Both the position numbers and the translations under genes were made by a program. The notes beneath the pieces were generated by a model. It was given only the letters and a program-made list of their open reading frames with translations, was not told where the DNA came from and ran no database searches. 64,000 bases of DNA from positions 26,638-90,637 of the forward strand of contig JADJGC010000024.1 in NCBI GenBank assembly GCA_016708315.1, read 5' to 3'. The stretch comes from a bacterium (GTDB lineage: Bacteria; Zixibacteria; MSB-5A5; CAIYYT01). Shown one piece after another: positions 45,263-52,170 of the stretch (positions are counted from its first letter, which is position 1; every line of letters begins with the position of its first letter).

Positions 45263-45627
45263 ATTAAGTAGTACTTCGCAGTACTTCAACAACTCTAAGA
45301 CATTTAATAGAATTTACGGTGTTCGGTGGTATGCAAACAGGCACCAGAGAATCCATGTTGCGCAAGCAAACTCTCAGTTGTGGGTTCGTGTCGTTTGTTC
45401 AACCTCGCCGGTAACTTTTTGAGATTGGAGAATATCGGGAATCTTAGGTAAAGCGCTGCAAGTTCATTTTCATACGCACGTTGCGTCCTCTCATATCCTT
45501 TGCACGTTTTCCCCCGCCGTAACGGCATTCCGCGATAGTTGATCCAATCAGAATTAGAATCGAAATGTGTCACATTGTGAAAGAATATAAGTCCTCTGCA
45601 GAACCTTTAGAAAACATTGGAGTCAAA

Positions 45628-48600
45628 ATGTCTAAACAGCTGACCAAGCTTATGATGCTTGTCATCATCGGAATGTGTTGTTTGACAATCACGCCATCGG
45701 TGTTTGCCGCCGGTGGAAACCCTGATCTTCCTGACTCGGTAATGGCGCTGATGAACAAAACTGCGCTGACCGGGGAACCATCGTTGCAGTACATATTCGA
45801 CAGCCTCGGATATGACATCAACGTTGCCACCGACGAAACCGGTATGGAGACCTTCTGTACAACGCCGGGACAAAATCTGGCGACAATTGTTATTGAAGTC
45901 GCCGGCTCCGCGGCAACTGCTCGCTCTGGTTGGTATGTTGCCAATGACACAACTCCGCTTTATCAGCTGTTTTCCGGCGGTGATGATCCGGGCGACTCGG
46001 TAACCTTCTCTGTTTCCGGAGGTGACTCCATCGGATTCTGGATGAAGCCGAGAATCGCACCAGACACCAACCGCACTTGGTACACGCAGAATTATCTCAA
46101 CTATGACGGATTTAACCACGCCAAGGTATTTCGTACCGGCGTTCCGCATGAATTCATCGTGGCTTTTGAGGACTTGCCGAACGGTGGAGACACGGACTGG
46201 AACGACTTGGTGTTCAAGGTCCGCTTCTCAAATCAGGCGCCGGTGATTACTCTCCCGGCCGATATCAATGTACTCCAATGTTCGTTGGCACAGATTTGTT
46301 TTGCAGTTAACGCTTCCGACCCCGATTGCCAGGGCGACACGATTACCGTCACCAAGCAATCAGGTCCGGGTACTTTCACACAGATCAAGCAGAAGGGTCC
46401 GGTCAGCACCAACTTCTGCTGGACTCCGGCGGCTGCAGGGACTTATCAGTTTGTTTTCAAGGTTAAAGACGAACTGAACGCTACCGATTTTGACACTATC
46501 AATGTAACGGTTACTTTGAATACGGCACCGGTTGCCAACGCAGGACGCGACTCCACCCTGTTCCAGTGCACACCGGCTCCGATTTGCATAACCGCTTCAT
46601 GCACCGATGCAAACAGCAATTTGTCGACCTGTCAATTGGTCTCAGGTCCTGGCACCTACAATGGTTCGACGATCTGTTTCACTCCCGCCTCTTCGGGAAC
46701 TTACACCCTTGTATTGAAAGCTACGGACGCGTGCGGATTGATCGACTATGATACTTCAGTCGTCAATGTCACACTCAATCAGGCTCCGATTGCGAATGCG
46801 GGTAATGACTCGACTCTCTCCCAGTGCACACCGGCACCGATTTGCGTGACTGCATCCTGCAGTGACCCGAACGGTAACCTGTCGACCTGCCAGTTGGTTT
46901 CAGGTCCGGGCACGTACAATGGCTCAGCAATTTGCTTCACACCGGCGGCGTCAGGTTCATACACCTTCGTGTTGAAGGCGACGGATGCTTGCGGATTGAC
47001 AGACTTTGATACTTCCGTTGTCAATGTGACTTTGAATCAGGCGCCAATTGCAAATGCGGGTAATGACTCGACACTCGCGCAGTGTACTCCCGCACCGATT
47101 TGCGTGACTGCATCTTGCAGCGACCCGAGCGGTAACCTCTCGACCTGCCAGTTGGTTTCCGGTCCGGGTACGTACAACGGCTCAGCGATCTGCTTCACTC
47201 CGGCAGCATCAGGTTCATACACCTTCGTGTTGAAGGCGACGGATGCTTGTGGTCTTACGGACTTCGATACTTCAGTAGTCAATGTGACACTCAATCAAGC
47301 ACCAATTGCGAATGCGGGCAACGATTCGACGTTGTTCCAGTGTACAGCGGCGCCGATTTGCGTGACTGCTTCCTGCAGTGACCCGAATGGTAACCTGTCG
47401 ACCTGTCAGCTTGTCTCTGGTCCGGGCACTTACAACGGCTCAGCGATCTGCTTCACACCGGCGGCATCAGGTTCATACACCTTCGTGTTGAAGGCGACGG
47501 ATGCTTGCGGATTGACGGACTTCGATACTTCAGTAGTGAATGTCACTCTTAATCAGGCACCGATTGCTAATGCCGGCATCGATTCGACGTTGTTCCAGTG
47601 TACTGCTGCTCCGATTTGCGTGACTGCATCCTGCAGTGATCCGAACGGTAACCTGTCGACCTGCCAGTTGGTCTCCGGTCCGGGCACCTACAACGGCTCA
47701 GCGATCTGCTTCACACCGGCGGCATCAGGTTCTTACACCTTCGTGTTGAAGGCGACGGACGCTTGCGGATTGACGGATTTCGATACGTCTGTAGTCAATG
47801 TGACTTTGAACCAAGCACCGGTTGCGAATGCGGGTAACGATTCGACACTCGCACAGTGCACTCCGGCACCGATTTGCGTGACTGCTTCCTGCAGTGATCC
47901 GAACGGTAACTTGTCGACCTGTCAGTTGGTCTCTGGTCCGGGCACTTACAACGGCTCAGCGATATGCTTCACACCGGCGGCATCAGGTTCATACACCTTC
48001 GTGTTGAAGGCGACGGATGCTTGCGGATTGACCGACTTCGATACTTCAGTAGTGAATGTCACACTCAATCAGGCGCCCGTTGCAAACGCTGGAAGTGATT
48101 CGACACTGTTCCAGTGCACGGCGGCTCCGATTTGCGTGACTGCGTCCTGCAGTGATCCGAACGGTAACCTGTCGACTTGTCAGCTTGTCTCTGGTCCGGG
48201 TACTTATAATGGCTCAGCGATCTGTTTCACGCCTGCGGCATCAGGTTCATACACCTTCGTGTTGAAGGCGACGGATGCTTGCGGGTTGACGGACTTTGAT
48301 ACTTCAGTAGTCAACGTGACTCTCAACCAGGCACCGGTTGCGAACGCCGGCAACGATTCGACGTTGTTCCAGTGTACACCCGCACCGATTTGCGTGACTG
48401 CATCCTGCAGTGATCCGAACGGTAATCTTTCGACCTGTCAGCTTGTCTCCGGTCCGGGCACCTACAACGGCTCAGCGATTTGCTTCACACCTGCGGCATC
48501 AGGAAGCTACACCTTCGTGTTGAAGGCGACGGATGCTTGCGGTCTTACGGACTTTGACACATCGGTAGTCAATGTCACACTCAATCAAGCACCGGTTGCG

Positions 48601-51600
48601 AATGCCGGCAACGATTCGACATTATTCCAGTGTACACCGGCTCCGATCTGTGTGACTGCATCCTGCAGTGACCCGAACGGCAACCTTTCGACCTGTCAGT
48701 TAGTCTCTGGTCCGGGTACCTACAACGGCTCAGCGATCTGCTTCACTCCGGCAGGTGCTGGTGTCTTCACCTTCGTTCTGAAAGCGACCGACGCTTGCGG
48801 AGCAACAGATTTTGACACTTCAGTAGTGACGGTATCACTTAACCAGCCGCCGGTAGCGAGCATGGGCAATGACTCAACGCTCTTCCAGTGCGGTGCAGCT
48901 CCGATTTGTATTCCGGCTTCGTGCTCCGATCCGAACGGTAACTTGTCGACCTGTCAGCTTGTCTCAGGTCCCGGTTCCTACAACGGCTCTGATGTCTGCT
49001 TCACTCCGGCTGGCGCTGGTGTCTTCACCTTCGTTCTGAAAGCGACCGACGCTTGCGGAGCGACGGACTTTGATACGGCAGTCGTGACGGTAGCACTCAA
49101 TCTTCCGCCGGTAGCCAATGCAGGACGCGATTCGACGCTGTTCCAGTGTGCTCCGGCGCAGATCTGCATCACGGCAGGCTGCAGTGATCCCGATGCCAAT
49201 CTTACCAATTGCGAATTGACTTCCGGTCCGGGAACGCTTAACGGCGGCGGCATCTGCTTCACGCCGGCAGCTTCCGGAATCTATACCTTTATAGTGAAAG
49301 CGACTGATGCTTGCGGTTTGACCGACTTCGATACCTCGGTAGTCAACGTCACGCTGAATCAAGCTCCGGTTGCGACGGTCGGAAACGACTCGACCTTGTT
49401 CCAGTGCACACCGGCTCCGATCTGTATCGCTGCCGCTTGCAGCGATCCGAACGGCAACTTGTCAACTTGTCAGTTAGTCTCAGGTCCGGGCACCTACAAT
49501 GGCTCGACGATCTGCTTCACGCCGGCATCTTCGGGAAGCTATACCTTGGTTCTCAAAGCCACGGATGCTTGCGGATTGACGGACTTCGATACGTCAGTCG
49601 TCAATGTCACACTTAACGTGGCACCGATTGCCAATGCTGGACGCGACTCGACGTTGTTCCAGTGTACACCGGCACCGATTTGCATTGCGGCTTCGTGCAG
49701 TGATGCCAATGCAAACTTGTCGACCTGCAACTTGATCTCCGGACCGGGCACCTACAACGGTTCGCAGATTTGCTTCACACCGGCGGGTGCAGGCACTTTC
49801 ACTTTCGTACTGCAAGCAACCGATGCTTGTGGAGCGACTGATCTTGATACTTCGGTGGTGACGGTGACAACAAACGTTGCGCCGATTGCAAACTGCCACG
49901 GCGATACAACAATTTTTGCGTGCAGCCTTGCGCAGATCTGCATTCCGGGATTCAGCGTAAGTGACGCCAATAACAACATCACAACGACGGTTGTCACGGG
50001 CGGCACACTCAATGCCGGATCAGTCTGCTTGACTCCAGTTGTTGGAGCGAACAATATCAGACTAATCGTTACGGACGCCTGCGGACTGGCGGATACTTGC
50101 CAGACAATCGTGACCGTAGTTCTCAATGCCGCGCCGGTAGCAAATGCCGGAGCTGATCAAAATCTGCTGTGCCAGACACCTGGGCAGTCGATCTGCTGGG
50201 CGGCAAGCTGTACCGATCCGAATAGCAACCTGACAGATTGCTCGCTGGTCTCGGGTCCGGGTACTTACAACGGCACACAGATTTGCTTCACACCAGCGTC
50301 GAGCGGCACCTTCTCATTCGTGCTTAAAGCAACCGATGCCTGCGGAGCTACTGATTTTGATACCGCGGTAGTCACCGTCAGATTGAACAACGCCCCGACG
50401 GCTTCGGTAGATCAGGGTGACACCACGATCTTCTGCAGCGAAACTGGCCCGATGCAGATTTGCGTGCCTTTCAGCTATGCTGACATGAACGGTAATGTGC
50501 AGAGTGTCAGTGTCAATCCGGCGCCGACGACGTTGAACTTCGCCAACGGCTCCGGGCTGTTCTGCTTCACACCCGCGAACGCATTTGATGATATCTATAG
50601 CTACACGGTTACAGTGACCGACAGTTGCGGATTGATTGCTCAATCGACGCACACCCGCTGGGTACGCTTCATCGATTGTGATACGGCGACGTGCTTTATT
50701 GTCAAGACCGAGAAGACGCACAATACCCTTCAGGGTCACTATGAATTCGTTTCAGTCACCATCGAAGGCGCCGGTCAGGAATTTGGCGGCTTTGATTTCT
50801 TGATGAGTTACGACAACTCTGCATTGAACTTCGTCGAAGCGAAGCCCGGTGACATGCTGACAACTTGCGGTTGGGAGTATTTCACCTATCGCTACGGCGC
50901 ACAGGGTAATTGCAACGGTTCGTGCCCGTCAGGATTGGTCAGAATCGTTTCGGTTGCCGACGCCAATAACGGCGCCAACCATCCGAGCTGCTTTGGTCCG
51001 GCGTTGCCGTCACCGCAAGAGTTGTTTGTATTGAAGTTCCTCGTCACCAATGACAGAACGTTCGAATGTCAGTACGTACCGGTCAGCTTCTTCTGGCTCG
51101 ATTGCGGCGACAACGCGATTTCGACTGTCACCGGCGACACGCTGTATCTCGAAAAGCGCATCTTCTCATTCGAAGGCAACGCAGTTTGGGATGAGTTTGA
51201 TGACGCGCTCTTCCCCGAGCACTCACGTCCGTTTGGTGTCGGAGCGTTGGACTTCTGTATGCTTGGCGACAAGTATGAGCCGATTCGCTGTATCGAATTC
51301 TGGATAGGCGGTATTGACATCGTCTGCGCCGATTCAATTGACGCGCCCGGCGACTTGAACCTTAACGGTATCGGATACGAAATCGCCGACGCCGTTATGT
51401 ACACGAACTACTTCCTGTACGGTCTCGCGGCTCTTGATCCGGATCCGATGCGTCGCGAAGCACAGATTGCGGCATCGGATGTCAACCGCGACGGCAGCAG
51501 CCTTTCGGTCGGCGATCTGGTTTACCTGATCCGAGTAGTTGTCGGCGACGCCCTTCCATTCAATAAACTGACGCCGTTTGCCAATAGCGTCATCGTGAAG

Positions 51601-52170
51601 CAGGAAGGCAGTGTCGTTTCGAGTGATGCCAATGTCGAAATCGGCGCCGCGCTGTTGGTATTCAATGTCGGCGAGAGCTATTCAATTAGCAGCCTCACCG
51701 ATATGACAGTGTCCACGAACGAAATGAACGGACAGGTTCGGGTGCTGATCTACGACATCTCGTCCAATTCAATCGCAGCCGGTTCTACGGCGCTGCTCGA
51801 AGTGACCGGAGATGCCGAACTGGTAAGCGCTGATGTTGCCGATTACAATGGCAGCATGATGACAGCACGCCTTGAGAAGAACGTTCTGCCGACAAGCTTC
51901 GCTCTTGGCCAGAACTATCCGAATCCGTTCAATCCTGAGACGGTGATTGAATTCGCCCTGCCGAAATCGGCGAATGTGATGATTACCGTTTACAACACTA
52001 CCGGCCAAAAAGTCGCGACGGTGTTGAACAATGTCATGAGCGCAGGCCGCCATCAAGTGAGATGGGACGGCAAGGACAGCGGCGGCAACACGGTGTCCTC
52101 AGGCGTTTATCTTTACAAGTTCGAGTCCGAGGGATTCAGCGAGACCAGAAAGATGTTGCTGGTCAAGTAG
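45628..52170 (+). CDS. Giant (about 2180-aa) secreted repeat protein, a T9SS cargo. Contains a signal peptide, a DUF4114-like domain, about 17 tandem 80-aa cysteine-containing Ig/HYR-like repeats, a cohesin-like domain, a dockerin-like double Ca-binding segment and a T9SS C-terminal sorting domain.
   Basis: Start MSKQLTKLMMLVIIGMCCLTITPSVFA with GGAG 9 nt upstream. DUF4114-like block (...DTDWNDLVFKV) about 45930-46220. Repeats (consensus APVANAGNDSTLFQCTPAPICVTASCSDPNGNLSTCQLVSGPGTYNGSAICFTPAASGSYTFVLKATDACGLTDFDTSVVNVTLNQ) 46240-50640. Cohesin-like (HYEFVSVTIEGAGQEFGGFDFLMSYDNSALNFVEAKPGDML...) about 50690-51170. Dockerin-like (DLNLNGIGYEIADAVMY... DVNRDGSSLSVGDLVYLIRVVVGD) about 51340-51550. 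T9SS tail (LGQNYPNPFNPETVIEFALP...VYNTTGQKVATV...GVYLYKF) 51900-52167. Confidence 0.8.
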   Translation: MSKQLTKLMMLVIIGMCCLTITPSVFAAGGNPDLPDSVMALMNKTALTGEPSLQYIFDSLGYDINVATDETGMETFCTTPGQNLATIVIEVAGSAATARSGWYVANDTTPLYQLFSGGDDPGDSVTFSVSGGDSIGFWMKPRIAPDTNRTWYTQNYLNYDGFNHAKVFRTGVPHEFIVAFEDLPNGGDTDWNDLVFKVRFSNQAPVITLPADINVLQCSLAQICFAVNASDPDCQGDTITVTKQSGPGTFTQIKQKGPVSTNFCWTPAAAGTYQFVFKVKDELNATDFDTINVTVTLNTAPVANAGRDSTLFQCTPAPICITASCTDANSNLSTCQLVSGPGTYNGSTICFTPASSGTYTLVLKATDACGLIDYDTSVVNVTLNQAPIANAGNDSTLSQCTPAPICVTASCSDPNGNLSTCQLVSGPGTYNGSAICFTPAASGSYTFVLKATDACGLTDFDTSVVNVTLNQAPIANAGNDSTLAQCTPAPICVTASCSDPSGNLSTCQLVSGPGTYNGSAICFTPAASGSYTFVLKATDACGLTDFDTSVVNVTLNQAPIANAGNDSTLFQCTAAPICVTASCSDPNGNLSTCQLVSGPGTYNGSAICFTPAASGSYTFVLKATDACGLTDFDTSVVNVTLNQAPIANAGIDSTLFQCTAAPICVTASCSDPNGNLSTCQLVSGPGTYNGSAICFTPAASGSYTFVLKATDACGLTDFDTSVVNVTLNQAPVANAGNDSTLAQCTPAPICVTASCSDPNGNLSTCQLVSGPGTYNGSAICFTPAASGSYTFVLKATDACGLTDFDTSVVNVTLNQAPVANAGSDSTLFQCTAAPICVTASCSDPNGNLSTCQLVSGPGTYNGSAICFTPAASGSYTFVLKATDACGLTDFDTSVVNVTLNQAPVANAGNDSTLFQCTPAPICVTASCSDPNGNLSTCQLVSGPGTYNGSAICFTPAASGSYTFVLKATDACGLTDFDTSVVNVTLNQAPVANAGNDSTLFQCTPAPICVTASCSDPNGNLSTCQLVSGPGTYNGSAICFTPAGAGVFTFVLKATDACGATDFDTSVVTVSLNQPPVASMGNDSTLFQCGAAPICIPASCSDPNGNLSTCQLVSGPGSYNGSDVCFTPAGAGVFTFVLKATDACGATDFDTAVVTVALNLPPVANAGRDSTLFQCAPAQICITAGCSDPDANLTNCELTSGPGTLNGGGICFTPAASGIYTFIVKATDACGLTDFDTSVVNVTLNQAPVATVGNDSTLFQCTPAPICIAAACSDPNGNLSTCQLVSGPGTYNGSTICFTPASSGSYTLVLKATDACGLTDFDTSVVNVTLNVAPIANAGRDSTLFQCTPAPICIAASCSDANANLSTCNLISGPGTYNGSQICFTPAGAGTFTFVLQATDACGATDLDTSVVTVTTNVAPIANCHGDTTIFACSLAQICIPGFSVSDANNNITTTVVTGGTLNAGSVCLTPVVGANNIRLIVTDACGLADTCQTIVTVVLNAAPVANAGADQNLLCQTPGQSICWAASCTDPNSNLTDCSLVSGPGTYNGTQICFTPASSGTFSFVLKATDACGATDFDTAVVTVRLNNAPTASVDQGDTTIFCSETGPMQICVPFSYADMNGNVQSVSVNPAPTTLNFANGSGLFCFTPANAFDDIYSYTVTVTDSCGLIAQSTHTRWVRFIDCDTATCFIVKTEKTHNTLQGHYEFVSVTIEGAGQEFGGFDFLMSYDNSALNFVEAKPGDMLTTCGWEYFTYRYGAQGNCNGSCPSGLVRIVSVADANNGANHPSCFGPALPSPQELFVLKFLVTNDRTFECQYVPVSFFWLDCGDNAISTVTGDTLYLEKRIFSFEGNAVWDEFDDALFPEHSRPFGVGALDFCMLGDKYEPIRCIEFWIGGIDIVCADSIDAPGDLNLNGIGYEIADAVMYTNYFLYGLAALDPDPMRREAQIAASDVNRDGSSLSVGDLVYLIRVVVGDALPFNKLTPFANSVIVKQEGSVVSSDANVEIGAALLVFNVGESYSISSLTDMTVSTNEMNGQVRVLIYDISSNSIAAGSTALLEVTGDAELVSADVADYNGSMMTARLEKNVLPTSFALGQNYPNPFNPETVIEFALPKSANVMITVYNTTGQKVATVLNNVMSAGRHQVRWDGKDSGGNTVSSGVYLYKFESEGFSETRKMLLVK
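46240..50640 (+). repeat. Coding tandem-repeat array, 240-bp period, about 17 units. Units 3-10 (about 46750-48700) are nearly identical at the nucleotide level.
   Basis: The phase-locked 240-nt recurrence of gtcaatgtgac(a/t)ctcaatcaggc(a/g)cc(g/a)attgc(g/a)aatgc... was read directly. Antisense ORFs of 81-141 aa within it are artefacts of the repeat. Confidence 0.85.

Follow-up and report, generated by a model that had tools for sequence, protein, structure and literature searches.

Why does a single secreted protein carry both a cohesin-like and a dockerin-like module beside its own surface-sorting signal? The question is raised by a gene at 45628..52170 (+) of the window (the whole 64-kb stretch of DNA that was analysed), which encodes a type IX secretion system (T9SS) cargo protein of 2180 aa. 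Homologs of its ValRS assign the organism, an uncultured bacterium, to Zixibacteria. One intact ORF spans 45565-52170 (+) in the ORF list of the window. Two observations support 45628 (MSKQLTKLMM...) as the start: a Shine-Dalgarno-like GGAG (45619..45622 (+), read from the sequence) 5 nt before the ATG, and the translated product, which is identical to NCBI MBK7093279.1; the latter is annotated as a 'T9SS type A sorting domain' protein and nothing more. The protein contains 112 Cys and is built, in order, from a signal peptide, a DUF4114 head, 17 Ig-like modules, a cohesin-fold domain, a dockerin-fold domain, a β-sandwich X domain, and a T9SS type-A C-terminal sorting domain (CTD). Six of these elements were listed in a preliminary description of the locus, and ORF, Pfam/TIGRFAM, TRF and fold/profile evidence places all six in the order given there; the seventh, the ~105-aa X domain (aa ~1982-2088), had been missed. 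The putative Sec signal peptide (aa 1-27, 45628..45708 (+), MSKQLTKLMMLVIIGMCCLTITPSVFA|A), recognized by eye, has the typical n-h-c pattern with a K-rich n-region, a hydrophobic core and a VFA|A site, and lacks a lipobox.

The N-terminal head domain (aa 28-201, 45709..46230 (+)) contains a DUF4114 match (PF13448; aa 146-200, nt 46063-46227) that covers profile positions 29-84 of 85 and, at 37.5 bits, exceeds the gathering score of 27, bearing out the DUF4114-like domain proposed earlier. The gene has positional orthologs across species. One of them, L003, has a head 86% identical, and in L005-L008, L010 and P0123 a VWA domain, a known adhesive domain, stands in place of the DUF4114 head. Such head swapping between positional orthologs is typical of adhesins.

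The head is followed by 17 Ig-like modules of the Big_9/PKD_4 type (aa 202-1683, 46231..50676 (+)), delimited by Pfam, TRF and unit parsing, which make up a stalk. Big_9 matches the stalk with 227.7 bits in 16 stretches and PKD_4 with 161.5 bits; HYR (PF02494), which had been suggested for the search, gave no match. TRF detected a period of 258 nt in 12.6 copies (score 3264) at 46524-49786, and unit parsing identified 13 of the 17 modules (aa 298-1415, nt 46519-49872) as canonical 86-aa units with six Cys each. The preliminary estimate of about 17 tandem repeats agrees with the module count, but the unit is 86 rather than 80 aa long and has six conserved Cys instead of four; the motif string quoted for it there itself holds six. 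The central units share 95-99% identity in protein but only 83-91% in DNA. In Bacteroidota, large repeat proteins and fibrillar adhesins anchored by the T9SS, such as the SprB-like proteins, combine stalk repeats with a tip domain and an anchor. The 2180-aa protein resembles them in its signal peptide, distal exchangeable head, long Ig-like stalk and C-terminal T9SS domain: stalk (17 Big_9/PKD modules) and CTD anchor are both present, and the tip is DUF4114, or VWA in positional orthologs. It differs in that its stalk units are nearly identical in protein while diverged in DNA, and in that a cohesin-dockerin cassette is inserted between the stalk and the CTD.

The cassette begins with a cohesin-fold domain (aa 1690-1899, 50695..51324 (+)), assigned from fold and profile evidence, that is divergent, rich in Cys and, at ~210 aa, enlarged. 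The preliminary description had proposed structure modelling of this region; the model shows cohesin and dockerin folds and not further Ig-like repeats, with aa 1690-1899 forming the nine-stranded jelly roll of cohesins. Cohesin PF00963 scores below its gathering score of 24.1 bits (12.1 with the whole protein; 17.0 and 20.3 in segments), matches at E <= 0.1 in 27 of 42 family members, and exceeds the gathering score in multi-cassette relatives (24.9-82 bits). In hhalign, the cassette profile aligned to a Pfam-passing cohesin of a neighbouring paralog over 109 columns (probability 66%, E 5.6e-5); against the PDB, it found cohesins at E 0.26-0.31 only. Eight Cys are conserved in the cohesin-like domain and the adjoining linker, which, together with the six Cys per Ig-like module, suggests disulfides.

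A conserved linker of 10 residues (CADSIDAPGD) and a dockerin-fold domain follow (aa 1900-1974, 51325..51549 (+)), the latter with two copies of a 13-residue D-x-N-x-[ND]-G loop, each leading into a helix. In the two copies, DLNLNGIGYEIAD... and DVNRDGSSLSVGD..., D1, N3, N/D5 and G6 are invariant. The terminal Asp occupies position 13 of both loops, each of which has a gap of one residue in the HMMER alignments to 3ul4_B and 4fl4_A; this insertion in both predicted Ca loops may change Ca binding and docking of the canonical kind. The isolated segment scores 17.1 bits (E 0.0066) with Dockerin_1 PF00404, below the gathering score of 22.9, and 10 of the 42 family members match at E <= 0.1. The segment has the three-helix fold of dockerins, and its profile resembles those of solved members. 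Since both modules are under the Pfam gathering scores in the 2180-aa protein, they were identified by fold and profile evidence; on that footing, the proposed union of cohesin and dockerin in one polypeptide with a T9SS tail stands, and both modules are real and fold-homologous to cellulosomal type-I modules. Among 74 paralogs and orthologs, the linker (majority fraction 0.85) and the dockerin (0.77) are the most conserved parts, compared with 0.60 for the CTD; one linker Cys is kept in 91% of relatives.

The X domain, a β-sandwich spacer between dockerin and CTD (aa 1982-2088, 51571..51891 (+)), was recognized in the AF2 model of the C-terminal segment. Its strands, at aa 1987-2083 (segment positions 305-401), have pLDDT > 90; the model does not place the domains relative to one another with confidence (pTM 0.52). 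The domain had no match in the Pfam search and is the least conserved part of the cassette. The T9SS type-A CTD (aa 2097-2180, 51916..52167 (+)) is above both cut-offs, as had been expected (TIGR04183, 38.2 bits vs 23; PF18962, 28.4 vs 27; aa 2097-2177 of 2180). T9SS components detected within the 64-kb window are a PorU-like C25 peptidase with a CTD (86 bits vs 420 for the PorU model) and a PorZ-like protein (115.8 bits vs 260) only, both under the NCBIfam equivalog cut-offs. Glycosyltransferase genes also lie within the window. The genes around the 2180-aa protein gene are housekeeping genes. Functional links to two neighbours had been considered; the Rieske gene is syntenic merely as part of this housekeeping neighbourhood, and the 'OMP-like' ORF (264 aa) has no family match and is absent from syntenic loci.

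The Coh-Doc-X(-CTD) cassette is not peculiar to this giant gene but forms the shared base of a very large family of paralogs. It was found in 2001 clusters (50% identity) at E <= 1e-3; among 750 matches, those with names are Zixibacteria, and GTDB species representatives contain at least 584 loci. Genomes have several paralogs each, up to five per MAG among the 80 loci kept. The cassette is a lineage-wide module. Its passengers vary and include VWA with Ig, Peptidase_C25 (L055), Ig, and some without known identity. In all C-terminally complete cassette proteins from 78 genome loci, the cassette directly precedes the CTD. A single Coh-Doc-X unit is present in 103 of the 145 best relatives; the other 42 depart from this pattern, with two, three or four cohesin-like modules ahead of a lone dockerin, with two or three whole Coh-Doc-X units, or with additional dockerins. 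Two relatives, P0258 and P0246, end in a canonical Dockerin_1 and have no CTD detectable by Pfam. Some genes adjoining cassette genes encode canonical Pfam cohesins (43-45 bits) directly ahead of the same dockerin-X-CTD. No description of the cassette in Zixibacteria was found in the literature searched.

The known reference set is the clostridial type-I cohesin-dockerin modules and scaffoldins, such as C. thermocellum CipA, OlpA and OlpC and A. cellulolyticus ScaB (PDB 1ohz, 3ul4, 4dh2 and 5nrk). Compared with these, the modules described here are under the Pfam thresholds, the cohesin is about 210 rather than about 140 aa long with eight conserved Cys including the linker, and both predicted Ca loops have 13 instead of 12 residues. 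The two modules lie back to back in one chain, the anchor is a T9SS CTD in a diderm cell rather than SLH or sortase, and cellulases and CBMs are missing. Ca. Stygibacter is in the same broad bacterial group as Zixibacteria. For this member of the Cloacimonadota, a cellulosome-like system has been proposed in which a T9SS-type CTD attaches a cohesin scaffoldin to the surface and a gingipain-like C25 peptidase is among the partners that carry dockerins (PMC8542988), reminiscent of the CTD and the C25 passenger L055 here. Its modules are detectable by InterPro, and its roles are split between a single scaffoldin, which has tandem cohesins along with CBMs, and distinct enzymes whose dockerins are C-terminal (PMC8542988), whereas each cargo here bears both modules beside its own CTD. 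Non-cellulosomal modules occur in many bacteria and archaea, as PMC9012536 states with reference to Peer 2009; examples are the Archaeoglobus fulgidus cohesin 2xdh, C. perfringens NagJ/NanJ modules, and ANME archaeal dockerin/cohesin proteins (PMC9012536). What sets the present modules apart is their fixed Coh-Doc-X arrangement at the foot of T9SS cargo, with ~2000 clusters and several paralogs per genome. A cellulosome-style principle outside Firmicutes, raised in the preliminary description, therefore has precedents (PMC8542988 and PMC9012536): Coh-Doc pairs are already known there, and the Zixibacterial cassette is a variant of them, not a cellulosome.

We propose, at about even odds (probability about 0.5), that the protein is a fibrillar adhesin-like surface protein whose cassette base links cargo in trans into a surface network. 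By analogy with T9SS type-A cargo in Bacteroidota, it would be exported by Sec, fold in the periplasm with the predicted disulfides, and be recognized by the T9SS through its type-A CTD, which would be cut off as the new C-terminus is attached to the outer surface. C-terminal attachment would leave the N-terminus pointing outward, with the DUF4114 head topping a 17-module stalk ~60 nm long if a module measures ~3.5-4 nm. The membrane-proximal cassette (divergent type-I-like cohesin, short and very conserved linker, divergent dockerin, β-sandwich spacer) would be both plug and socket. Above all, we infer that the dockerin of one cargo binds, presumably in a Ca-dependent manner, the cohesin of another cassette protein or of a multi-cohesin scaffoldin-like relative, so that adhesin-like fibrils, VWA proteins and C25 peptidases would be tied non-covalently into surface chains or a network. 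An oligomeric scaffold appears reasonable because the architectures of relatives (a single dockerin beside four cohesin-like modules, Coh-Doc-X units in tandem, Dockerin_1 replacing the CTD) fit pairing between molecules. The high conservation of dockerin and linker across the 74 relatives fits a shared partner, and the canonical cohesins ahead of the same dockerin-X-CTD in adjoining genes argue for trans pairing. The cassette base in about 2000 clusters points to an undescribed plug-and-socket building of the bacterial surface. More tentatively, in Zixibacteria and some other FCB-group lineages, fused socket-and-plug T9SS cargo and multi-cohesin or dockerin-terminated adaptors might self-assemble into a hierarchical non-covalent lattice showing adhesins, VWA proteins and proteases. 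If so, a diderm phylum would have a general principle of surface architecture that is neither an S-layer nor a cellulosome, and the near-identical, strongly constrained Cys-rich Ig units would be functional binding units rather than spacers.

Most members have one cohesin and one dockerin on a short conserved linker, an arrangement that speaks against a trans network and equally fits a fixed intramolecular unit. The dockerin could accordingly sit on the cohesin of its own chain, forming a rigid Ca-stabilized base that keeps the stalk upright and cross-links no proteins. The strict 1:1 ratio in 103 of 145 best relatives, the 10-residue linker whose conservation (0.85) and Cys (91%) suggest a fixed junction, and the duplication of whole Coh-Doc-X units are in keeping with this idea. 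We consider it rather unlikely, given that some relatives have two to four cohesin-like modules for each dockerin or an excess of dockerins, that some have a canonical dockerin at the end in place of the CTD, and that the AF2 model shows no confident interdomain packing. Less probable still is that the cassette is an extended, lineage-specific part of the T9SS signal, read by PorU/PorZ/PorV-like machinery or binding a surface glycolipid, with no mutual pairing. Its place directly before the CTD in the 2180-aa protein as in all complete proteins, its conservation above that of the CTD, and the PorU-like, PorZ-like and glycosyltransferase genes of the window would suit such a role, whereas internal tandem cassettes far from the CTD, the two cassette members without a Pfam-detected CTD, and canonical cohesins at the same position in neighbouring paralogs do not. 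We know of no precedent for cohesin/dockerin/X as an extended T9SS sorting module.

Relative to pairing in trans, a true polysaccharide-degrading, cellulosome-like complex with the 2180-aa protein as anchoring scaffoldin is very improbable. The folds are of the cellulosomal type-I kind, multi-cohesin relatives exist, and the Cloacimonadota proposal (PMC8542988) is comparable. A cellulosome, however, is defined by several cohesins, dockerin-bearing CAZymes and a CBM; the 2180-aa protein has a single cohesin without CBM or glycoside hydrolase domain, its surroundings are housekeeping genes, and the ten passengers sampled comprise Ig, VWA and C25 peptidase domains and some without known identity. 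The cellulosome-style likeness drawn earlier thus finds no CAZyme domain in the 2180-aa protein or in the sampled paralogs (0/10). It is hardly credible that metagenome mis-assembly created the repeat array or the domain combination. The sequence does come from a MAG, the cluster mate P0122 begins within repeats, and the head and the remainder of the L003 gene are in separate ORFs; the repeat copy number could change, with the conclusions unaffected. Against an artefact, the units differ by 9-17% in DNA and can therefore be assembled, and the ORF is intact across 6.5 kb. Positional orthologs of the same design (2444-2539 aa) occur in independent MAGs, and the identical protein is present in NCBI on a 296-kb contig.

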